This document shows, one piece after another, positions 579 through 21,668 of a stretch of DNA of 64,000 nt (position 1 is its first letter; the number at the start of each line of letters is the position of its first letter). The position numbers and the translations under genes were made by a program. Location: the NCBI GenBank assembly GCA_041742825.1, contig JBGTNX010000115.1:34491-98490 (forward strand), in the 5' to 3' direction. Origin of the DNA: Acidimicrobiia bacterium. GTDB lineage: Bacteria > Actinomycetota > Acidimicrobiia > Spongiisociales > ZC4RG35. Below the pieces are notes generated by a model. The model made no database searches, had not been told where the DNA came from, and was given only the letters and a program-made list of their open reading frames with translations.

Positions 579-1220
579 TCAGGCCTTTACGGACGTAACC
601 AGCTCGGCGAGCAGGCTGCGCACCCGTTGCTCGATGTCATCGCGGATCGGGCGCACGTCTTCGACTGACTTGCCGGACGGGTCGTCGAGCTCCCAGTCGA
701 CATACCTCTTCCCGGGGAACAGCGGGCAGGCGTCTCCACAGCCCATGGTCACCACCACATCGGCAGCGCGGATGATCTCGTCGGACCAGGGTTGGGGGAT
801 CTCGGTGCCGATGTCGATCCCCTTTTCCGCCATCGCCGCAACCGCGGCCTGGTTCACCATCTTCGCCGGCTCGGACCCACCCGAGAAGACATCGACGTCG
901 TCGCCTGCAATGTGTCGCATCCATCCGGCGGCCATCTGGGATCGCCCGGCGTTGTGCACGCAGAGGAAGAGCACGCTGGGTTTGAGGGTGCTGACGTCGG
1001 CATCGAGACGGATGAGGGCGCGCAGGCGATCACGGGCGAAGCGCTCGGCGAGGAGAGGCACCCAGGTGCTGGTGCTTGCCCGTTCGGTGAGCGTATCGAG
1101 GGAGCTGTTCATGAACCGCTCGACGGTCTCGGCGTTGAGTTTTCCTTCGAACTGCCGTCGAAGGCGTTCGGCAGCCTCCCGGATCTGGAGCTTTTCGGCG
1201 GTGTTGAGAATGACTGGCAT
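579..1220 (-). CDS. arsC: Arsenate reductase, LMW-PTP type, with an N-terminal helical extension of about 80 aa
   Basis: P-loop CVHNAGRSQMAAG (CX5R-S) and downstream TMGCGDACP. Start taken at ATG 1220 (MPVILNT). The longer 369-aa ORF upstream overlaps the aquaporin gene and looks spurious. Confidence 0.85.
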   Translation of the reverse strand: MPVILNTAEKLQIREAAERLRRQFEGKLNAETVERFMNSSLDTLTERASTSTWVPLLAERFARDRLRALIRLDADVSTLKPSVLFLCVHNAGRSQMAAGWMRHIAGDDVDVFSGGSEPAKMVNQAAVAAMAEKGIDIGTEIPQPWSDEIIRAADVVVTMGCGDACPLFPGKRYVDWELDDPSGKSVEDVRPIRDDIEQRVRSLLAELVTSVKA

Positions 1221-1228
1221 GGCAACCT

Positions 1229-1900
1229 TCAGTTGAGAGATAGTTGTCGGGAATTTTTCGGGAAGAGAAAGGAGACGAAAGGCACGCTGAGTGCGCCGGC
1301 GACCAATTGGGCAACCACGAATCCGGGTACCGAAGCAGCGGCGATGCCCGTATAGGTGTCGGTGAGGACTCTGGACATCGTGACGGCAGGGTTGGCGAAG
1401 CCGGTCGATGAGGTGGCGAAGACGATTGCGGCCACCCAGGCACCAACTGCCATCGGCACCGCATAGGCCCGGTCTGTCCTGACCAGGGCAAGGATTGCGA
1501 GCACGAGGACGAACGTGGAGATGAACTCGGCGAGGATCAACCCCGGCCCCCCGCGTTCGGTGCTCGACGCCTGCACCATGCTTTCCCCGAAGCTGTAGTT
1601 GGCGGCAGCCACCCCGGCGACCGCCCCAGCTAGCTGGGCTGTCCCATAACCGATGGCGAGACGGCCGTCCAAGGCGCGGAATCGCCAAAAAGCGAGCGTG
1701 ACTGCGGGGTTGAAATGAGATCCCGACACAGCTTGGAACAGAGCGATAAGCACGGCGAGGCCCAAGCCGACTGCAACCGCATGAGCCATGAGTCGGACCC
1801 CTGCATCGTCGGCGAGCCTTTCGGCGGCTATCCCGCTTCCGACGATGACGTAGAGGAGGAGGGCGGTGCCGACTCCCTCTGCGGTGATCTCCCGTGTCAT
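1229..1900 (-). CDS. MIP/aquaporin family channel (AqpS-like candidate arsenite channel)
   Basis: Two NPA boxes (HFNPAVTLAF and FANPAVTMSR) and a hydrophobic 6-TM pattern. Lies between two ars genes. Confidence 0.85.
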   Translation of the reverse strand: MTREITAEGVGTALLLYVIVGSGIAAERLADDAGVRLMAHAVAVGLGLAVLIALFQAVSGSHFNPAVTLAFWRFRALDGRLAIGYGTAQLAGAVAGVAAANYSFGESMVQASSTERGGPGLILAEFISTFVLVLAILALVRTDRAYAVPMAVGAWVAAIVFATSSTGFANPAVTMSRVLTDTYTGIAAASVPGFVVAQLVAGALSVPFVSFLFPKNSRQLSLN

Positions 1901-1903
1901 CGG

Positions 1904-2578
1904 TCAGGCTCGGGAGTTCTCAAGTCGGCCGACCCGGGTTGCGATCTCCTCGAATGCCTTCTGAAATGACCGGAGGTCTCCTGCTCGCACCGGATCCGGC
2001 ACCGACCAGTGGAAAGTGGTTGTCGCCGGGGGCAAACCGTCTTCCCGGGCCCGGTCGCAGACACTGACCACGAGGTCGGGTTTGGCTCCGAGAGTCTCGT
2101 ACCCGGCCGGTGATCGCCCGGAGAGGTCGATGTCCATGCTGGCTGCCGCTTTGACCGCAAGGGGATGGACACGACCTGCCGGATGGCTTCCCGCACTTTT
2201 GGCCTTTTCGCCGGTGGCCTTTTCCCATACCGCAGCGGCGAACTGAGAGCGGGCGGAGTTGTGGGTGCAGATGAAAGCGACCGATCCGAATTCGTGCGAT
2301 TGCCCTGGCCGTGGCCCGGGGAACGAGTCCAACGAGTCCAACGAGTCCCAGTTCAGTGTTACGTACTTGCGCCGTCGGTCGCCCTCAGATACTTGGCGCC
2401 GAATCAGTGAAGCGGCTTCGAGGATGTCGAGATGGTGAGCCAGGAGGTTGGTGCCGATCTCAGCGATACGGGCAAGTTCGGCAACAGTGAGATCGGATGC
2501 GGCGAGGTGGTCGACTATCGACAGGCGCCGGGCATCTCCGAGGGCCGCGTGCACCGCTGCTCTGACTTCCAAGGTCAT
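1904..2578 (-). CDS. ArsR-family HTH regulator fused to an LMW-PTP/ArsC-like domain
   Basis: N-terminal ArsR/SmtB wHTH (ALGDARRLSIVDHL...LTVAELA...NLLAHHLDILEAASLI). C-terminal CTHNSARSQ P-loop. ATG 2578 chosen because the TTG at 2617 lies inside the promoter. Confidence 0.8.
   Translation of the reverse strand: MTLEVRAAVHAALGDARRLSIVDHLAASDLTVAELARIAEIGTNLLAHHLDILEAASLIRRQVSEGDRRRKYVTLNWDSLDSLDSFPGPRPGQSHEFGSVAFICTHNSARSQFAAAVWEKATGEKAKSAGSHPAGRVHPLAVKAAASMDIDLSGRSPAGYETLGAKPDLVVSVCDRAREDGLPPATTTFHWSVPDPVRAGDLRSFQKAFEEIATRVGRLENSRA
2322..2348. repeat. 3 x 9-bp perfect in-frame tandem repeat (aacgagtcc)
   Basis: Read directly. Encodes DSLDSLDS in the linker between the ArsR and ArsC-like domains. 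Confidence 0.9.
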
Positions 2579-2587
2579 ATGTTCCCA

Positions 2588-2617
2588 ACTATATTGACTC
2601 AATAATTTCTGTGTCAA
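2588..2617 (-). promoter_or_regulatory. Putative sigma70-type promoter with embedded ArsR-type imperfect dyad
   Basis: Minus strand reads TTGACA-18 nt-TATAGT, with the ATG 10 nt after the -10 box. Arms TTGAC/GTCAA flank an AT-rich core. Locally AT-rich in a GC-rich genome. Confidence 0.5.
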
Positions 2618-2740: not shown

Positions 2741-3208
2741 ATGGAAATCAACACCGGCCTATCCGAAGAATCCAGGAGCGAATTGGCTGAGGGCTTGGGC
2801 CGTCTGCTCGCCGACACCTACACCCTGTACGTCAAGACGCACGGATATCACTGGAATGTCACCGGTCCGATGTTCAGGACGCTGCACCTGATGTTCGAGG
2901 AGGAGTACATCGACCTTCGAGAGGCAGTCGACGTTATCGCCGAACGGATCAGGGCGTTGGGCCACCCGGCACCGGGAAGCTACTCCGAGTTTGCGGAGTT
3001 GACCTCAGTGACCGACGAAAAAGGTGTGCCTGAGGCCATGGAAATGGTGCGAAACCTCATGGAGGGCCATGAGTCGGTAGTCCGCACCGGCCGAGAGGTA
3101 GTGAAGACGGCGGAGGAAACCGGTGACGTGGCTTCGGCGGACCTGGTTACCCAGCGGATCGACATCCACGAAAAGACTGCATGGATGCTGCGATCGATGG
3201 CTTCTTAG
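2741..3208 (+). CDS. dps: Dps family DNA-protection/ferritin-like protein
   Basis: LADTYTLYVKTHGYHWNVTGPMFRTLHLMFEEEY is a classic Dps ferroxidase-site region. GGGAG RBS upstream. Confidence 0.9.
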   Translation: MEINTGLSEESRSELAEGLGRLLADTYTLYVKTHGYHWNVTGPMFRTLHLMFEEEYIDLREAVDVIAERIRALGHPAPGSYSEFAELTSVTDEKGVPEAMEMVRNLMEGHESVVRTGREVVKTAEETGDVASADLVTQRIDIHEKTAWMLRSMAS

Positions 3209-4782: not shown

Positions 4783-5433
4783 TCAGAGATCCGGAATGGC
4801 TTTGTCGAGGAGACGGCGAACCTCCGACTCGGGGGTCTGGCCGAACTGGCGGTACCAGGCTCCCACTGCGACCAGCGAGAGAGGTGTGAGCAAGGAAACC
4901 ACGTCGTCAGCCACCCATTCCAGCCTGGCGACTACCTCGGGCGCCGCCACCGGCACCGCTACGACGATCGACCTCGGTCCCAAGGTCCGCAATGCCTCGA
5001 CCGCAGCCTTCATGGACGACCCGGTGGCCATGCCGTCATCGACGACGATTGCGGTTTTGCCCGTAATGTCGATGTCCCGTTCGTCGCCGCGCAATGCAAG
5101 TTCCCTCTCTTTCAATTCAGTGCGTGCCGCCGCAGCCGCCGCATTGAACGCCTCGTCACTCATTTTCAGCAAGCCGAGGACTTGTTCGTTGCGGACGATG
5201 ACACCACCTGAGGCCACGGCGCCCATTGCCAGCTCGGGTTGGCCGGGAACCCCGATCTTGCGAACGACGACGATGTCGAGCGGAGCACCGAGATGGCGGG
5301 CCACCTCAAAGGCCACCGGGACACCGCCCCGGGGAAGACCGAATACCACCAGGTCGCGGCTCCCGGCATAGTCGCTGAAGGCACCAGCGAGCCGCTTCCC
5401 GGCGTCGCTACGATCGGTAAACCGTTCTGCCAT
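4783..5433 (-). CDS. Phosphoribosyltransferase family protein
   Basis: PRPP-binding loop AIVVDDGMATGSSM and N-terminal FGLPRGGVPVA. Confidence 0.85.
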   Translation of the reverse strand: MAERFTDRSDAGKRLAGAFSDYAGSRDLVVFGLPRGGVPVAFEVARHLGAPLDIVVVRKIGVPGQPELAMGAVASGGVIVRNEQVLGLLKMSDEAFNAAAAAARTELKERELALRGDERDIDITGKTAIVVDDGMATGSSMKAAVEALRTLGPRSIVVAVPVAAPEVVARLEWVADDVVSLLTPLSLVAVGAWYRQFGQTPESEVRRLLDKAIPDL

Positions 5434-5499
5434 TGTTCGAAACCTACCGATCTGCAGCCAGCCTCAGTTAGGGGCCGAAACCGAACGGCAGACCCGCAC

Positions 5500-7500
5500 C
5501 TATGAGGTTGCTTTGAGGTCGAGCCGCCTCAGAAGTTGGGCGTTGAGGGCAACGACCACCGTCGAGGCGCTCATCAGGACTGCGGCCACGGCCGGACCGA
5601 GGACGACTCCCGCCCAGGCCAGCGCTCCGGCGGCCAGGGGCAGAGCGACCACGTTGTACCCGGTTGCCCAGGCGAGGTTCTGTAGCATCTTGCGGTAACC
5701 GGCTGCGGAGAGCCTCCTGATTGCGATGACACCCCGCGGATCATCGGACGCGAGGACAATGCCGGCCGACTCGATTGCGACATCGGTACCGGCGCCGATG
5801 GCAATCCCGACGTCAGCCTGAGCCAGGGCCGGAGCATCGTTCACGCCGTCGCCAACCATTGCAACGGTGAAGCCACGCTCCTGCAGTGAAGCGACGTAGG
5901 AGTGTTTGTCCTCAGGAAGAACCTCCGCCATCACTTCGTCGATATCGAGTTCGGCTGCAACCGCTTCGGCGACCTGACGGGCGTCTCCGGTGATCATCGC
6001 AACCTTCACTCCGCGACGGTGCAACTGTTCGACTGCATCCCGGGACTCGAGTCTGACTTCGTCCTCGAGGGAGATTGCCCCGGCGACCACACCGTCACGA
6101 ATCACATACAGAACAGCCGAACCTCTATCGCGCCACAAAGCTGTATTCCCGTGCAACTCCTTCGGTTCTTCGAGACCCCTTTCCCGCAGCATTGTTGGTC
6201 CTCCAACAGCCACCGTCGAGCCGTTTACCGTCGCTTCGACCCCTCGCCCGCTCATCGATTTGAAATCGGTCGCCCGTGGAACTCCTCCAAGTTCGCGCCC
6301 CGCCGTGGTGATCGCACGGGCAAGAGGATGTTCGGAATCGGACTCGACGCCTGCCGCCAGCAGGAGAATCCCGTCGTTGTCCCCGTTGGTCGCCAACACT
6401 TCCGCAACCCGGTGTGCGCCCTTGGTCAGCGTCCCGGTCTTGTCGAAGAGGACGAGGTCCACCGACCTCATCTTCTCCAACGCCAGACGGTCCTTGACCA
6501 GAATCCCGTTCCGCGCCGCCATCCCTGTTGATATCGAGATCACCATTGGTATCGCAAGACCAAGAGCATGAGGACAGGCGATAACCAGGACGGCGACCGT
6601 CCGCACCACAGCCTGGTCCGCCTGACCGACCGCAACCCATGCGATCGCCGTGATTACTGCAGCCCCGAGCGCTACGTAGAAGAGGACAGCGGCTGCGCGA
6701 TCGGCGAGAACTTGGGCTTTGGATCGAGATGACTGAGCGGCAGTGACCAGACGCTGGATCCCGGCGAGTGCCGTATCTTCCCCGACCGCGTCAACCTCGA
6801 TCCGGATCGCAGTGTCGGTCGCCACCGTCCCCGCGACGGTTCTGTCTCCGGGCCTTTTTCTGACCGGCCGGGATTCGCCCGTCACCATCGACTCGTCCAC
6901 TTCAACCTCACCGTCGGTGATGGTGCCGTCCGCAGGTATCCGTGCTCCTGGTCTCACCAGCACCACATCGCCGGGGGAGAGGTGGCTGGTCGGGACCTCC
7001 CTGGTTCCGTCTTCGGTCACGACCTCGGCGGTGTCGGGCAGCAGCTCGGCGAGGGCGGCAAGGGCACCACGGGCCTGTCCGATTGCCCGCATTTCCATCC
7101 AGTGCCCGAGGAGCATCACGGTTATCAGGGCAGCAAGCTCCCACCAGAACTCGAGATCGAACCACCCCAACGAGGTGGCAACCGACGCCGAGAAGGCGAC
7201 GGTTATCGCCATTGCGATAAGGAGCATCATGCCCGGTTGTCGATCCCGGACCTCCATGGCCGCGCCCTTGAGGAACGGTGAGCCGCCGTAGACGAAGATG
7301 ATGGTCCCCAGAAGTGGTGCCACGAGCTCTGATCCCGGGAAGGTTGTGGCGGAGTAGCCAAACCAGGCCTGGATCATCTCGCTGAAGTACACGACCGGGA
7401 TCGTCAGCAGCAGTGAAATCCAGAACCGGTCCCGGAACATGTCCGGGCTATGTCCCTCATGTTTGTCGTGTCGGGCTGTGTCGTGGCCCTGGTGATCCAT
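5500..7500 (-). CDS. copB: Heavy-metal P1B-type ATPase, CopB-like (CPH motif, His-rich N-terminus)
   Basis: Motifs [17 protein letters not shown] and TM6 CPH (VIACPHALG). N-terminus [20 protein letters not shown] 7500 has a GAGGAAG RBS; the GTG at 7521 abuts the -10 box. Confidence 0.9.
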
Positions 7501-7523
7501 AGTCACTTCCTCTTGCTCCACCC

Positions 7524-7555
7524 GTTATACACCTTCTAGTGTGCTGGAAGGTCAA
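7524..7555 (-). promoter_or_regulatory. MerR/CueR-type promoter with long spacer and internal dyad
   Basis: Minus strand reads TTGACC-20 nt-TATAAC. The spacer holds arms ACCTTC/GAAGGT separated by 10 nt. Confidence 0.6.
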
Positions 7556-7595
7556 GGGCGGCCGGAGAGTTCCCGTCGAAACGGCGGGGTTCGGC

Positions 7596-9731
7596 CTAGC
7601 GCCTCGTCGCAGAGTTGACGATTATCACCGGGCAGGGGGCGTGGCGGACCAGGTGCTCGACGCGAGGGCCGAGGTGGAGCCGGGTGCTTCCTGCCCTGAC
7701 GCTGGTGCCAAGGACGAGGAGGTCCGGGTGCGTCTCCTCGACGGCGTCGAGGATCCCCGTCTCGGCGTCGATGGCGTGCCTCACATCGGTCGAGTACGCG
7801 GCCTGGCCCATGGCCTGGCCAACTACCTCGAGCTCGGCCGTGACCTCGGCCCCGAGTATGTCGCGTGACGGTCTTCCATAGGCTGTGGAAACGACATGGA
7901 TCAGGTTCACGTCGTCCCCGCGTTTGGCGATTGCGAACGCCATCTCAGCTGCTCTCTGCGCAGATTGCGTTCCGTTCGTAGGAACCAGCATCCGGCTCGG
8001 ATTCCAGTCGGATCCGGCATCCTGCCCGCCTCTGACGATCAGGGTGGCACAAGGGGCGAGCTTGACGAGATCATCGATTACCGGCCCGAAAAGGCTCTCC
8101 TCCGCATCGCGGGGGGCAGGCGTGCCTAGCACCATGAGGTCATAGCCTCCCTTCGCCTCCTCCAGGATGGCAGCCACCGGATCGTCCGACACAACTACTC
8201 GGGATACGACGTCGCGCCCGAAGAGATTCTCGATTTCCGACAAGTATCGGATGGTTCCCTGCCGTTCCTCCGCCGCGATGACGGCAAAGAGTGTGATCGC
8301 CATCTCCTGGTTCTTGGAGATTCGCTTGAGGATGGTCGCCTGCATCCCCCGGGTGAAACCGACTGTCTCCGGACCTCCTCGAACCGGGACAAGGATCCGC
8401 CTGATCTCACCGACGAATGAGCCCTTCATTGTCGCCTCCCGGCGAAGGCGTCTCTCCTCCTCATCTCCGAGGACGATTCGCGATGTTGTGTACCGCAACG
8501 CCACCGGTGCCATCAGCGATGTCGCAATGGCCATGACAACGATTATCGAGAACATCTCCTGGCTGAGGATGCCCAGAGAAAGCCCGATGGTTGCGATGAT
8601 TATCTCGAGGGCACCGCGGGCGTTGAGACCGGACCCGTAAGCGAGGGCCGACCAGTGATCCTGTCGGGCAAGAAGCCGAGCGCCAGCGTAGGCACCGACC
8701 ACTTTCCCGAAAGTCGCAACCAGGATGACCGCAAGGGTGATGAAGAGGAGCCTTGGTTCGAGGATCGCCGAGATATTCACCTTGAGCCCTGCATTCGCGA
8801 AGAAAATCGGAGCGAAGATCGCCAGGGCGACCGACTCAAGCTTCTGGATCGCGTCGGACGGCAGTCGCGGCGAGCGCCCGAAGAGAATCCCGATCACAAA
8901 GGCGCCGAGTACCGGCTCGAGATGCAGGGCCTGGGTGAAAGCCCCCCAGACGAAGGCAAGTACCACAACGAGGGTGAGGACATGGTCGGGGCCGCGAAAC
9001 CGGTCCTGGACAAACGCCAGGCTGCGATCGACGAGCCACGCTCCAATTGTCACGGTCGCCACGATGAAAACCACCACAAGGCCAACCGTCTGGATCACCG
9101 TCCCCGCGGTGAGGGTGGCAGCACTCGCGAGTGCGGTGACCAAACCCAACAGCGTCCAACCTGTGATGTCATCGATCATCCCGGCTGCAAGCAGGGTCTG
9201 ACCGACATCACGTCGCATCAGGTCGAGGTCCATAAGGACCTTGGCGAGAACCGGGATCGCCGAAATCGACAGGGCGGTCGCCACGAACAGGGCAAACACC
9301 GTGCGCTGGGCAGGGTCGGCGAGGAGATCGTCGGGGATCGCGAAGCCGAGGGCTAGACCGGTAACGAACGGCAGAACCAAGCCCCCCACCGCCACGCCAA
9401 GGGCGGTGGCGGCCTTTCTCTTGATCAACCGGAGGTCGGTCTCCAGGCCGGTGATGATCAGGAGGAACATCACCCCGATGAGTGCCACCACCTCGAGGAG
9501 ATAGCCCTGGACCTCGGTTTGGGGGACGATCCAGCGTCCGACCAAAGGAAACAGCCCGGAGATGAGTGTCGGCCCCAGCACCACGCCGGCGAGGATCTCT
9601 CCGACCACGGAGGGCTGTCCCAGTCTGCGAGCGAGGCCCCCCATGAGTCGCGCGGCGAAGAGCAGCAGAGCGATCTGGACCACAAGCATCAGCACGTCAT
9701 CGTGCGAAGCTGCACCGAATACACCGGGCAC
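7596..9731 (-). CDS. CPA2-type cation:proton antiporter fused to two C-terminal universal stress protein (USP) domains
   Basis: Polytopic Na+/H+-exchanger-like region of about 400 aa. It is followed by two USP-like modules (ILVPVRGG...LMVLGT and MLVPTNGT...LLVLGT...HAPCPVIIV). GTG start with a GGAAGGAG RBS. Confidence 0.85.
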   Translation of the reverse strand: MPGVFGAASHDDVLMLVVQIALLLFAARLMGGLARRLGQPSVVGEILAGVVLGPTLISGLFPLVGRWIVPQTEVQGYLLEVVALIGVMFLLIITGLETDLRLIKRKAATALGVAVGGLVLPFVTGLALGFAIPDDLLADPAQRTVFALFVATALSISAIPVLAKVLMDLDLMRRDVGQTLLAAGMIDDITGWTLLGLVTALASAATLTAGTVIQTVGLVVVFIVATVTIGAWLVDRSLAFVQDRFRGPDHVLTLVVVLAFVWGAFTQALHLEPVLGAFVIGILFGRSPRLPSDAIQKLESVALAIFAPIFFANAGLKVNISAILEPRLLFITLAVILVATFGKVVGAYAGARLLARQDHWSALAYGSGLNARGALEIIIATIGLSLGILSQEMFSIIVVMAIATSLMAPVALRYTTSRIVLGDEEERRLRREATMKGSFVGEIRRILVPVRGGPETVGFTRGMQATILKRISKNQEMAITLFAVIAAEERQGTIRYLSEIENLFGRDVVSRVVVSDDPVAAILEEAKGGYDLMVLGTPAPRDAEESLFGPVIDDLVKLAPCATLIVRGGQDAGSDWNPSRMLVPTNGTQSAQRAAEMAFAIAKRGDDVNLIHVVSTAYGRPSRDILGAEVTAELEVVGQAMGQAAYSTDVRHAIDAETGILDAVEETHPDLLVLGTSVRAGSTRLHLGPRVEHLVRHAPCPVIIVNSATRR

Positions 9732-9749
9732 ATCTACTCCTTCCTCTGT

Positions 9750-9857
9750 CGCCTTGGGGGTTAGCTGACGGGCTCGGGCTGGAAGCTGCCCTACTCGCTG
9801 GTGAGATTCGCCCCGGGTTGTTGGGTTCCCCCACCCGGACAGGTCCGGGTTCGGCGG
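9750..9857 (-). promoter_or_regulatory. ydaO/kimA-class c-di-AMP riboswitch aptamer
   Basis: Minus-strand blocks GGGGGAACCCA, GGGGCGAAUC, GUAGGGC and CCCGAGCCCGUCAGCUAACCCCCAAGGCG. Closing helix CGCC/GGCG. Ends 4 nt before the antiporter RBS. Confidence 0.8.
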
Positions 9858-10084
9858 TTACCTGAGGCAGGCTAGTGCAGAACGACGCAAGTGAAAATGC
9901 CCCAACCAGTCACCGCTCGAGTGGGCTTCCACCGGTTTCATTGGTTCGACCTTGTTTGGGTCTTGAAGTGGTGCGCTCCGTTGCAAAAAGCCTTCTCTTT
10001 GTGAGATGTCACGATCCGGGGATATCGAGCTGAGAGCCTCGAACTGGGAGGCAACCGGTCGACAAGATCCATCGCGTCGGTAGG

Positions 10085-11644
10085 ATGTCCGGTCAGGGTG
10101 ATCTTGGAGGGGTGCAAGTGGGGGGATATCGGCGGTCTATGGTCTGGAGTCTCGTCTATGGCCTCGGGCTCACGCTCCTCCTCTCCGCCGCGCTTTGGTT
10201 CACCGTGGCCAACGGCCAACAATTCGCGTCCGGGGACTCTCCGACGTATCTGTCCTCGGCTGAGAACATGGCGGCCGGACGCGGCTACATCGTGTCCTTC
10301 GGCGGCAGCGAGGGCGAGGCCGCGGTGCATGCGTTTCCTCCGGGATACCCGGCCACCGTTGCCGCCCTCACAAGCTTTGGGATCGAGGTGGAGACGGCGG
10401 CCGCCATCATCTCGTCCTTGCTTGTCGGCGCAATCGCCGGCTCGTTCTTCGCCTTCACACTCAGGCGGGTAGGGTCTCCTGGCGTTGCGATAGCCGTAGG
10501 GGCCTTAGCCGCGCTGCTCACATTCCCCTTTGCAGTCGCGCCTCGCTCAGAAGCGCTATTTGGGTTGCTCATCTCGGTGGCGGTGATGAGTGCCGCCTCA
10601 TTCCTCCGCTCACGCAATGAGAAATTCCTCTTGTTCGCATCGCTCATGGCAGTGCTTTCCGTGACTGTCCGGACAGTCGGGCTTGCGGTTGTGGCCGGCA
10701 TTGCAGTGACAGCTTGGCTTGGTCTGGAGGATCGCCGGCGCAGGCTGATCTATTCGGGGGGGATCGTGTTGGCGGGACTCCTCGTATTCAGGGCTCTCGT
10801 TGGGACCGGCGAGCGGGCGATCGCCTGGCACCCGCCTGATTTACAGACACTCAAAGTGGGAGCGCATGCGATCGTCCGGTGGTTGGTACCCGACATCGCG
10901 AACCCATTGACCGAACTCGTCTTGTTTCTGGGCCTCGTAGTTGGGATCGGGGTTCTCCTGACTGCCGCATACAGACGGACAGGGCTCGATATTTCGAGAT
11001 CGGCGCCATGGTGGCCCGCAGCATTGGTAGCGGTATTTCAGGTGCTGATGTTGCTGGCAGCGAGGGCCCTATTCGTTGCGCAAACGGATCTCAGCAGTCG
11101 TCTGATGTATCCGGTTGCACTTGCAGTGCTGCTCGGAGCTGTTGAGTTGACGTCGTCGAAGAAATCTTCCGCTCCCAGCCGCTCCGGGAGGGTCGCAGTG
11201 CTTCTCCTTTGTGGGGCGGCCTTGGCCGCGTCGTCGTGGATTGCGATTCAGCTTGCTCTCGACGTACGGTCGGGAGATCGCGACATCGCATCCTCCGAGT
11301 TCATCGATGGTGCTCCGGTCGACGCCGCACGTGAACTGTCGAGCGATCACATCCTGTATAGCAATTATCCCGACGCCCTCTGGGTGGCTGATATCGACAG
11401 GGCGCGGTACATCCCCCGCGACTACAGCCCGCTCAGCCTCCTCCCCAACGAAAGCCTCGAGGCGGAGCTCGATCGCCTGGGTCGGGAGACCCTCGCCAAC
11501 GACGCCGTCGTCCTGATGTATCGCGCCCAAACGAGGGGCTACCAGATCGATGAAGAGACCGTGCGTGAGGTAGTGCCCTGTGTCGTGGTGGAGACCGAGG
11601 ACGCTGTCCTGCTCGTCTCGAATGGGCATCCGTGGTGCCCGTGA
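10085..11644 (+). CDS. Polytopic membrane protein, GT-C (ArnT/PMT)-like glycosyltransferase candidate
   Basis: About 10-12 hydrophobic helices, then a soluble tail of about 130 aa. Sits at the head of a sugar cluster. Start uncertain (alternative Met at 10139). Confidence 0.55.
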   Translation: MSGQGDLGGVQVGGYRRSMVWSLVYGLGLTLLLSAALWFTVANGQQFASGDSPTYLSSAENMAAGRGYIVSFGGSEGEAAVHAFPPGYPATVAALTSFGIEVETAAAIISSLLVGAIAGSFFAFTLRRVGSPGVAIAVGALAALLTFPFAVAPRSEALFGLLISVAVMSAASFLRSRNEKFLLFASLMAVLSVTVRTVGLAVVAGIAVTAWLGLEDRRRRLIYSGGIVLAGLLVFRALVGTGERAIAWHPPDLQTLKVGAHAIVRWLVPDIANPLTELVLFLGLVVGIGVLLTAAYRRTGLDISRSAPWWPAALVAVFQVLMLLAARALFVAQTDLSSRLMYPVALAVLLGAVELTSSKKSSAPSRSGRVAVLLLCGAALAASSWIAIQLALDVRSGDRDIASSEFIDGAPVDAARELSSDHILYSNYPDALWVADIDRARYIPRDYSPLSLLPNESLEAELDRLGRETLANDAVVLMYRAQTRGYQIDEETVREVVPCVVVETEDAVLLVSNGHPWCP

Positions 11645-19922: not shown

Positions 19923-21668
19923 ATGAGCCTCTCCGACAGCCGACTTTCCAATCTGGGGGCCAATCAGATCATCACCGGATTCGACGGGTTCATGGACCGG
20001 TTCAGGGCGATCAATCGGCGTGCCCCCGGACGATTCGAACTTCGGGATTGGGCGGGCGCTCAATCGGATGCGGTCGAGAGGCTCGATCTTTATTCATCGA
20101 CGGTGGGAGAGGTCGTCGGAGCGATCGAGGCACTGCTGGAGGATCGCTGCGAAGACTCGGTGTTGTGGGTCGCGATCAAAGCCGTCTACTCCAGGTTGAT
20201 CTCAGATCGCCAGGACTGGGAACTGGCAGAGACCTACTTCAATTCTATAACCCGGAAGGTCTTCACCACGGTCGGCGTCGACTCAGCCGTGGAGTTCGTC
20301 GACACCGATTTCGACAGCCCACCCAGTCCGTCACAAGCACCTGTCTACCGAACCTATGAAGGGGCGGCATCGCTCACGGCTCTGATCGCAGAGATCCTGG
20401 AAGGGGCGAGACATCGTGTTGACTACGCCGACTTCGAAGGAAATGTCGCCGAGGTGTCCGAGCGGGTCGAGCGCCGGTTGAGCGGAGCCGGGGGGTTGCC
20501 TGTGGTCGAACGCGCGGAAGTAGTCGGGTCGATGTTCTATCGGGGCCAGGCGGCGTACATAGTTGGGCTTCTGTATTCGGGATCACAGAGGATTCCATTG
20601 GCGATCGCACTGCGAAACAGTTCCGGCGGTGTCGTTGTCGATGCTGTTCTGCTCACCGAGAACGAGGTGTCGATCCTGTTCAGCTTCACCCGGTCCTATT
20701 TCCAGGTCGATGTGGCGCGGCCTTACGACCTGGTCCGGTTCTTGCGCAGGCTGATGCCACGGAAGCGGATCGCCGAGTTGTACATCTCGATCGGCCACAA
20801 TAAACACGGCAAGACCGAGCTCTACCGCGACCTGCTCCGGCACCTGCAGTCGACCGACGAGCGGTTCGAGCATGCCCGCGGCACCAAAGGCCTGGTGATG
20901 ATCGTGTTCACGATGCCGGGTTATGACGACGTGTTCAAGGTGATCCGGGACCGGTTCGCACCCCCGAAGCGGACGACGCGACGGACCGTGATGGCGAAGT
21001 ACAAGATGGTCTTCCAACATGATCGGGCCGGCCGCCTGATGGATGTCCAGGACTTCCAGCATCTGAAGTTCGATAAGTCCAGGTTCAGCGAAAAGCTGTT
21101 AGCAGAGCTTCTCGACGAGGCAGGGAGAACCGTATCGATGGAAGGCGACTCTGTGATCGTCAGCCACGTCTATGTCGAACGCCGCATCGTCCCCCTCGAC
21201 GTGTTCGTCCGTGAAGCACTGCCGACGGCCGCCGCTGAAGCGGTGCTCGACTACGGCCAGGCGATCAAGGACCTGGCTTCGACCAACATCTTCCCTGGCG
21301 ACCTGCTCATGAAGAACTTCGGAGTCACCAGGCACGGGCGGGTGGTTTTCTATGACTATGACGAGCTCTCGGCCCTCACTGATGTCAGGTTCAGGGAGAT
21401 GCCACAGCCGCGTGACGACCACGACGCGATGTCGGCCCAGCCATGGTTTGCGGTCGGGGAGCGCGATGTGTTCCCCGAAGAGCACGAGCACTTTCTCGGG
21501 CTGAATTCCGAGCTCAAGGACCGGTTCAATCAGACTCACGCCGACCTGTTCCGGGTCGAACCGTGGGTGGGCATCCAGGATCGGATTCTCGAAGGGGAGC
21601 TGATCGAGGTCTTCCCGTACTCGGAGGGGGCGAGACTTCCCGGTACGGCCGGCTTCCGGGGCTGGTGA
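19923..21668 (+). CDS. aceK: Isocitrate dehydrogenase kinase/phosphatase
   Basis: Collinear with E. coli AceK as I remember it: GLVMIVFTMPGYDDVFKVIRDRFAPPK, NIFPGDLLMKNFGVTRHGRVVFYDYDE, DVFPEE. Length about 580 aa. Confidence 0.9.
   Translation: MSLSDSRLSNLGANQIITGFDGFMDRFRAINRRAPGRFELRDWAGAQSDAVERLDLYSSTVGEVVGAIEALLEDRCEDSVLWVAIKAVYSRLISDRQDWELAETYFNSITRKVFTTVGVDSAVEFVDTDFDSPPSPSQAPVYRTYEGAASLTALIAEILEGARHRVDYADFEGNVAEVSERVERRLSGAGGLPVVERAEVVGSMFYRGQAAYIVGLLYSGSQRIPLAIALRNSSGGVVVDAVLLTENEVSILFSFTRSYFQVDVARPYDLVRFLRRLMPRKRIAELYISIGHNKHGKTELYRDLLRHLQSTDERFEHARGTKGLVMIVFTMPGYDDVFKVIRDRFAPPKRTTRRTVMAKYKMVFQHDRAGRLMDVQDFQHLKFDKSRFSEKLLAELLDEAGRTVSMEGDSVIVSHVYVERRIVPLDVFVREALPTAAAEAVLDYGQAIKDLASTNIFPGDLLMKNFGVTRHGRVVFYDYDELSALTDVRFREMPQPRDDHDAMSAQPWFAVGERDVFPEEHEHFLGLNSELKDRFNQTHADLFRVEPWVGIQDRILEGELIEVFPYSEGARLPGTAGFRGW

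Follow-up and report, generated by a model that had tools for sequence, protein, structure and literature searches.

The 5' leader of a cation/proton antiporter gene from an Acidimicrobiia bacterium contains a cyclic di-adenosine monophosphate (c-di-AMP) riboswitch of the ydaO/kimA class, and the ribosome-binding site (RBS) of the gene is itself one strand of the aptamer pseudoknot. We propose that this leader would act as a translational OFF switch for a NapA-like Na+/H+ antiporter, a reading to which we assign a probability of about 0.72. The DNA analysed, referred to here as the window, is a stretch of 64,000 nucleotides (nt) from GenBank assembly GCA_041742825.1 (contig JBGTNX010000115.1, positions 34,491 to 98,490), and positions are counted from its first letter unless another locus is named. 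The riboswitch and the antiporter gene lie on its minus strand, and an initial annotation made by reading the letters of the window had already pointed to both.

To establish the identity of the RNA, the whole 64 kb window was scanned by cmscan with all 4227 Rfam families, which includes the comparison with RF00379 that the initial annotation had suggested as a check. The c-di-AMP riboswitch family RF00379 matched at 9866..9735 (minus strand) with 86.2 bits and E 1.1e-18, more than twice the gathering score of 38, and was the sole Rfam match above gathering score in the window. The match covers model positions 1-134 of 134 and is not truncated. This is far above chance level, and the RNA is a genuine RF00379 c-di-AMP riboswitch, as had been proposed; the minus-strand sequence quoted for 9857..9750 in support of that proposal is identical to the window. 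All of the core blocks, CCGAA, GGGGGA-CCC, GGGGCGAAUC, GUAGGGC, CCCGAGCCCGUCAGCUAACC and AGGCG, are found in the window RNA. When 20 sequences, the crystallised RNA 4QLM among them, are aligned, the window RNA has every invariant column; it also aligns to all RF00379 helices with two non-standard pairs. The closing helix CGCC/GGCG named in the initial annotation equals P1, with its 5' strand at 9853..9856 and its 3' strand at 9750..9753 in the cmscan alignment. In 80 diverse members of the family, 96.4% of the cells in the nested helices are paired and 20 of the 28 pairs changed on both sides, compared with 33-46% paired when the partners were slid, the alignment having been fitted to the model and hence biased towards structure. 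The nested helices of the pseudo-twofold aptamer fold are well supported by this covariation, and from its family membership the window RNA would be expected to bind two molecules of c-di-AMP.

The aptamer is preceded by a predicted −10 hexamer, TAGCCT (9869..9874, minus strand), which ends 12 nt before P1. We compared this region in 37 sequences, namely the window, 35 orthologous loci and a second riboswitch found in the locus L005, and in all of them a hexamer of the form TANNNT ends 7-14 nt (mode 11) upstream of P1. For DNA of 62-70% G+C this putative promoter element is strongly conserved, and it fits the −10 consensus of actinobacterial housekeeping promoters. The transcript is accordingly predicted to start at about 9863..9861, 5-7 nt before P1, which would make the aptamer the very 5' end of the mRNA. 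On the other side of the aptamer, P1 is separated from the GTG start codon of the antiporter gene (9729..9731) by 18 nt; use of this GTG is supported by an ATG at the same position in the ortholog L062. We found no intrinsic terminator, and no stem with a U-tract, between the aptamer and the antiporter open reading frame (ORF), in agreement with what had been claimed before. The GTG start is also overlapped by an ATG in another frame (AUGUG), from which a 14-codon ORF runs at 9733-9689 (minus strand) behind the same RBS; it is probably there by chance.

The Shine-Dalgarno region, GAGGAAGGAG, lies at 9737..9746. It contains the RBS GGAAGGAG, the sole Shine-Dalgarno sequence, 5-7 nt before the GTG, and the 5' half of this RBS is GGAAG (9744..9740). 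The loop of the hairpin GGGC-AGCUUCCA-GCCC presents the complementary CUUCC (9785..9781), and in the alignment both strands stand at the pseudoknot positions of 4QLM, where the hairpin that precedes the CCCGAGCCCG block has the loop CUCCUUCG, paired with CGAAGGAG just after P1 (sequence from PMC5393176). The initial annotation had ended the aptamer 4 nt before the RBS. Between P1 and GGAAGGAG there are 5 nt (ACAGA), and the aptamer continues into the RBS; thus the RBS is a strand of the aptamer pseudoknot rather than merely adjoining the aptamer. The crystallised RNA (4QLM/4QLN; Ren and Patel, 2014) therefore resembles the window RNA both in its core blocks, which align, and in having a hairpin loop that pairs with the tail after P1. 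It differs in the lengths of its P2 and P5 hairpins and in the size of the pseudoknot, which is 8 base pairs (bp) in CUCCUUCG:CGAAGGAG and 5 bp here, in CUUCC:GGAAG, with a 5-nt linker after P1.

The calculated stability of the loop:tail duplex (−9.1 kcal/mol) and that of the RBS with a generic 16S 3' tail (−8.9 kcal/mol) are about equal, so that pseudoknot and ribosome would compete for the RBS. When only nested structures were allowed in the thermodynamic calculation, the mean probability that the RBS is unpaired was an uninformative 0.54. The minimum-free-energy fold contains another candidate, an upstream anti-Shine-Dalgarno helix between CCUGCCUC (9871..9864) and GAGGAAGG. We rejected it on the grounds that CCUGCCUC overlaps the conserved −10 hexamer and is therefore probably not fully transcribed, and also because the energy of this fold does not surpass that of shuffled sequences.

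Covariation of the pseudoknot was followed in a sample of the class collected independently of the antiporter gene. The invariant 14-mer CCCGTCAGCTAACC was scanned in the genome collection that also served for the ortholog search, which gave at least 120 loci, mostly from Solirubrobacterales and Streptomyces with some from Firmicutes, Cyanobacteria, Nitrospirota and others; these loci hold 119 matches to a model of our own, 108 of them with at least about 1 kb of downstream sequence. Across the 119 matches listed the loop and the tail covary, as in CUCUUUC:GAAAGAG, CCUUCCU:AGGAAGG, CUCCUUG:CAAGGAG, CUUCCCUA:UAGGGAGG and GCCCAUG:UAUGGGC, and among 131 distinct members of the family there are dozens of different loop/tail combinations that match. 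The longest complementary run averages 6.13 for matched loop and tail and 5.27 when loops and tails of different members are combined, a margin kept small by the loose pairing between pyrimidine loops and purine tails, and none of 2000 permutations reached the observed value. Among the antiporter loci, the second riboswitch of L005 has CUUUCC with GGAAAG, and L020 retains the pairing through G-U in CCUUCC with GGGAGG. In the Acidimicrobiia loci where our script placed a start codon, the distance to it from the GGAAG(G) strand is 6-16 nt. An aptamer abutting the start codon is a common platform among the sampled actinobacterial members, and the sampled Streptomyces members have AGGAAGG in the pseudoknot, then AAAGGAG and the start codon.

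From this arrangement a simple mechanism can be put forward. When c-di-AMP is bound, the aptamer would adopt its full fold with P1 and the CUUCC (9785..9781):GGAAG (9744..9740) pseudoknot, which would hold the Shine-Dalgarno sequence buried against the aptamer so that the 30S subunit could not bind and no antiporter would be made. At low c-di-AMP, pseudoknot and P1 would be unlocked, the Shine-Dalgarno sequence would be free and translation could proceed. The OFF direction is favoured because the pseudoknot is part of the fold seen in crystals with ligand, because all characterised members of the class are OFF switches, and because the nlpC member of Corynebacterium glutamicum lowers protein, not transcript, at high c-di-AMP (PMC9960051). 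The antiporter would then belong to the functions expressed at low c-di-AMP, under salt or osmotic upshift or K+ demand, beside K+ and osmolyte uptake, and, as a NapA-type protein with a DD motif, would export Na+ in exchange for H+ when c-di-AMP is low. A Na+ extruder made under these conditions fits the accepted picture, where c-di-AMP is low at salt or osmotic upshift and its low level releases K+ and osmolyte uptake; in Staphylococcus aureus, high c-di-AMP prevents kdp upregulation under salt stress (PMC4686210).

That the output would be translational, as the initial annotation had argued from the lack of a terminator, is in accordance with the start codon lying 7 nt after GGAAGG and with the layout of three distant orthologs. 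In L065 (2931-3020), L067 (2934-3030) and L073 (2925-3020), which come from two unclassified metagenome-assembled genomes (MAGs) and one Trueperaceae MAG, an upstream ORF of 18-21 codons begins 8 nt downstream of the pseudoknot strand. Its frame differs from that of the antiporter gene, whose start codon is overlapped by the TGA stop of this ORF as ATGA or GTGA. The encoded peptides are unrelated in sequence and only the arrangement is kept. This is the classic layout of translational coupling, which would be meaningful only if ribosome entry is what the riboswitch controls, and the upstream ORFs thus provide an independent hint at a translational output.

The regulated gene (7596..9731, minus strand) encodes a 711-residue protein in which Pfam places Na_H_Exchanger (PF00999) at residues 27-413 (E 3.5e-52), followed by two Usp stretches (E 1.9e-28). 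It is thus a CPA2 cation/proton antiporter with two C-terminal universal stress protein (USP) domains, as the earlier reading had it. Among solved structures, Thermus NapA (4BWZ/5BZ2) is the nearest, at about E 1e-37, the match to KefC reaching only 4e-9; Thermus NapA is an electrogenic Na+/H+ antiporter. Residues D187-D188 (in the motif IDD) align with D156-D157 of NapA and a lysine in the motif GKV aligns with K305, the TM10 lysine, and the DD motif is kept in 44 of 45 orthologs. Na+/H+ exchangers have ND or DD where the K+-selective KefC/KEA proteins have QD (PMC11150392). [quoted passage not shown]

We also asked whether the protein itself carries a recognisable c-di-AMP or nucleotide site. 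The motif of ATP-binding USP domains of the UspFG type, G-X2-G-X9-G-(S/T), is found neither in the window protein nor in any of the 45 orthologs. The SXS-X20-FTAXY motif of KdpD gave no match, not even to FTAXY alone, in the window protein or in the same 45 orthologs. Similarly, the window protein has no TrkA/RCK Pfam match and no (I/L)(I/L)X2DXRX5N(I/L)(I/L) signature of RCK_C. With all three motifs missing, we rejected the ideas that the USP domains sense c-di-AMP in the manner of KdpD or bind ATP, and that an RCK_C domain is hidden in the protein. The KdpD USP domain, a c-di-AMP receptor, does offer a likeness in that a USP domain sits on an ion-homeostasis protein of the c-di-AMP regulon, but it needs SXS-X20-FTAXY for binding (PMC4686210), the motif that is missing here and in the 45 orthologs parsed. 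A two-tier control, in which the riboswitch would set the amount of the transporter and the tandem USP domains, as a novel receptor for c-di-AMP (or pApA/AMP), would gate its activity, is an improbable extension of the proposal. It would parallel the control of both expression and activity of KimA and KtrAB in Bacillus, and, were it true, Na+/H+ antiport would be a core output of c-di-AMP, repressed by it, with a sign opposite to that of CpaA and KhtTU.

To determine how widely riboswitch and antiporter occur together, orthologs were collected with one genome per species, giving 80 loci. The antiporter's closest relatives, at 92-93% protein identity, are in Acidimicrobiia MAGs, which puts the window in that class. 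In 41 of the 80 loci the ortholog is immediately preceded by an RF00379 match above gathering score, and a model built here from the riboswitch sequences recovered the same set. Protein identity is at least 61% and the upstream sequence sufficient in 44 loci, mostly from Acidimicrobiia; an intact riboswitch is present in 37 of these 44, compared with 4 of 35 (L043, L065, L067 and L073) among the more distant loci from Chloroflexota, Gemmatimonadota, Deinococcota and others. Seven of the related loci (L015, L016, L017, L024, L028, L029 and L057) are titled 'uncultured Acidobacteriota bacterium'; their promoter, riboswitch and antiporter are as in Acidimicrobiia MAGs, with 61-64% protein identity and the same TAGATT −10 box, and the taxonomic labels may be wrong.

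A further instance of the pairing is present in L005, where a second, divergent gene for an 801-residue Na_H_Exchanger and Usp protein (5298-7703, minus strand) has its own RF00379 match at 7744-7894 (minus strand, 97.5 bits). This gene is convergent to the ortholog, which in L005 is without a riboswitch; the other copy in the same MAG (L009) has one. Since the second gene carries its own RF00379, the link between the riboswitch and antiporter-USP genes would have arisen, or been kept, in two gene lineages. Decayed copies below gathering score lie upstream of intact antiporter genes in L006 (2927-3000, 5' part only), L008 (2846-2985, CAGCUAAC core mutated) and L046 (2858-2987, pseudoknot loop lost). 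The closest relatives at 92% protein identity reach only 56 bits (L001, 2809-2948) and 49 bits (L002, 2865-2997) against 86 for the window, and L002 has a mismatched P1 (CACC against GGCG) and an altered GGGGGA block, so that the aptamer may be drifting in the L001/L002 lineage. The pairing of riboswitch, antiporter and USP domains is rare for the class, yet it is kept in dozens of Acidimicrobiia genomes.

The initial annotation had described the target as unusual, and our survey of the class agrees. Among the 119 matches listed from the class sample, tblastn (E up to 1e-3, up to 3 kb downstream) found no antiporter/USP homolog after any riboswitch. According to reviews, the targets of the class are transporters of K+ and amino acids and enzymes of the cell wall, and for Streptomyces only cell-wall hydrolases are listed. 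Full-text searches of the literature returned no paper with a c-di-AMP riboswitch before a cation/proton antiporter, the gene lists of Nelson et al. (2013) and Block et al. (2010) lying outside their coverage. An unusual target for the class is thus supported.

Several observations weigh against the translational OFF switch. The minimum free energy of the region is not better than that of shuffled sequences (z = 0.99). CUUCC and GGAAG are nearly invariant within Acidimicrobiia, and the covariation of the pseudoknot comes from other family members. Inspection by eye of five loci (L013, L015, L016, L017 and L019) revealed a second AGAGG-like site nearer the start codon, and in these the working RBS may lie outside the pseudoknot. 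No domain of a c-di-AMP cyclase or phosphodiesterase was present among 44 window ORFs scanned with Pfam. In addition, the rpfA member of Streptomyces coelicolor, also without a canonical terminator, is reported to act on transcription, its transcript rising when the riboswitch or DisA is missing (PMC9960051; PMC10117811). By analogy, a real riboswitch in the window could have transcript level as its main output, through premature termination without a canonical terminator or through Rho-dependent termination or decay inside the ORF, and both effects could coexist, given that a translation block commonly exposes mRNA to Rho and RNases. We consider transcript level rather unlikely as the main output, however, because the 18 nt between P1 and the start codon hold no stem-plus-U-tract, the RBS is itself the pseudoknot strand, and the coupled upstream ORFs of L065, L067 and L073 point to translation. 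An ON switch, in which c-di-AMP would free the RBS and induce the antiporter, would match the activation by c-di-AMP of the CPA2 K+ exporters CpaA and KhtTU at the protein level, since induction would suit K+ export if that is what the protein does. It seems very improbable in view of the pseudoknot loop, which is the sole conserved complement of the RBS and is paired in the ligand-bound 4QLM fold, whereas the single upstream candidate, CCUGCCUC, overlaps the −10 box; moreover, no ON member of the class has been described, and the transporter has DD, not the QD of K+-selective exchangers. Finally, the decayed copies in L006, L008 and L046 and the low scores of the nearest relatives, L001 and L002 (just 56 and 49 bits), might suggest that the window copy is a decaying relic, or a sensor of something other than c-di-AMP. 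With 86.2 bits, all the invariant columns and 41 orthologous loci above gathering score, this is the most improbable of the alternatives.

The most plausible alternative, although still on the unlikely side, leaves the OFF switch in place and changes the ion, the antiporter moving K+ (by K+/H+ exchange or uptake) and the riboswitch directly tuning the K+ balance, as with kimA, ktr or kdp. CPA2 includes K+ transporters and the class usually controls K+ uptake genes. A further point against Na+ is that the KefC substitutions Q155D and T127V abolished binding and did not switch specificity (PMC11150392), and so the DD motif is a hint to the choice of ion and not a proof of it. On the other hand, the match to NapA is far stronger than that to KefC (about 1e-37 against 4e-9), equivalents of D156, D157 and K305 are present with DD in 44 of the 45 orthologs, and repression of a K+ exporter at high c-di-AMP would oppose the known logic of c-di-AMP signalling. 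A translational OFF switch of a Na+/H+ antiporter is the reading that we prefer.

Comparison with characterised systems helps to place the proposed switch. The ydaO/kimA riboswitch of Bacillus subtilis, as Nelson et al. (2013) is cited in other papers, shares the aptamer family (P1-P7 and pseudoknot), the position in the leader of an ion-transport gene and the OFF logic. It differs in having an intrinsic terminator and a K+ importer as its target, where the window has the RBS in the pseudoknot, no terminator and a NapA-like protein with USP domains. The nlpC riboswitch of C. glutamicum (PMC9960051), like the window element, is actinobacterial and without a terminator. There is evidence for translational repression, in that reporter protein was lowered and transcript was not, and a CUCC:GGAG pseudoknot that involves the RBS was put forward by its authors. 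Its target is a cell-wall peptidase and not a transporter, and the mechanism in Corynebacterium is only partly shown. At the protein level, c-di-AMP is tied to CPA2 antiport through CpaA (S. aureus), KhtTU (B. subtilis) and CpeAB (Streptomyces), hence in Actinobacteria too. Those proteins are controlled via RCK_C, are mostly activated and are thought to be K+/H+ exporters, whereas here control would be at the RNA level, likely as repression, on a protein with USP instead of RCK domains and a NapA-like ion site. A different riboswitch, the Na+ riboswitch (DUF1646 motif; PMC9337991), also precedes napA-like 'kefB' genes and serves salt or osmotic adaptation, but it has an unrelated fold, binds Na+ and is an ON switch that works via a terminator.

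In the neighbourhood of the antiporter gene, the next gene on the same strand, 74 nt downstream, encodes a copper-type P1B ATPase (5500-7521, minus strand). Such an ATPase comes after the antiporter in just two other loci, the close relatives L002 and L062, and an operon of the two genes as a conserved unit was rejected because the synteny is confined to these loci. The His-rich N-terminus and the replacement of CPC by CPH suggest that the ATPase is a CopB-like pump. On the other side of the antiporter gene, a divergent gene for a membrane protein with no confident family (10085..11644) leads into a sugar-modification cluster. Two adjoining low-molecular-weight phosphatase (ArsC-like) fusion proteins, one with an ArsR-type helix-turn-helix, are encoded at 579-2617 (minus strand) and adjoin a Dps/ferritin gene (2741-3208); together with the copper ATPase they suggest a small metal and oxidative-stress neighbourhood. 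Elsewhere in the window, 19923-21668 (plus strand) encodes a full-length AceK, the isocitrate dehydrogenase kinase/phosphatase (E 4e-107), an enzyme best known from Proteobacteria and here in an Acidimicrobiia host. The flanks of related loci contain a thiamine pyrophosphate (TPP) riboswitch (L033:7193-7306, plus strand, 60.6 bits) and a group II intron fragment (L074:5236-5343, plus strand, 60.4 bits), both unrelated to the present finding.

The riboswitch class, its ligand and the OFF logic are textbook knowledge, and the RNA itself adds nothing new to them. What is new, in a modest way, is this target, its conservation in Acidimicrobiia, the predicted repression by c-di-AMP and a clear case of an RBS inside the pseudoknot. 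Riboswitch specialists will find no surprise here, and for the field of c-di-AMP and ion homeostasis the interest is moderate, the target being physiologically sensible. The leader would nevertheless provide a clean natural case for translational control by the class, hitherto supported only indirectly, in C. glutamicum. It would also add a new regulon member in a barely studied actinobacterial class, whereas the targets known from Streptomyces and Corynebacterium are cell-wall hydrolases. Overall, the finding suggests a concrete link between c-di-AMP and sodium/proton exchange, in which the predicted repression of the antiporter would have the reverse sign of what c-di-AMP does to the K+/H+ antiporters CpaA and KhtTU, which it activates.

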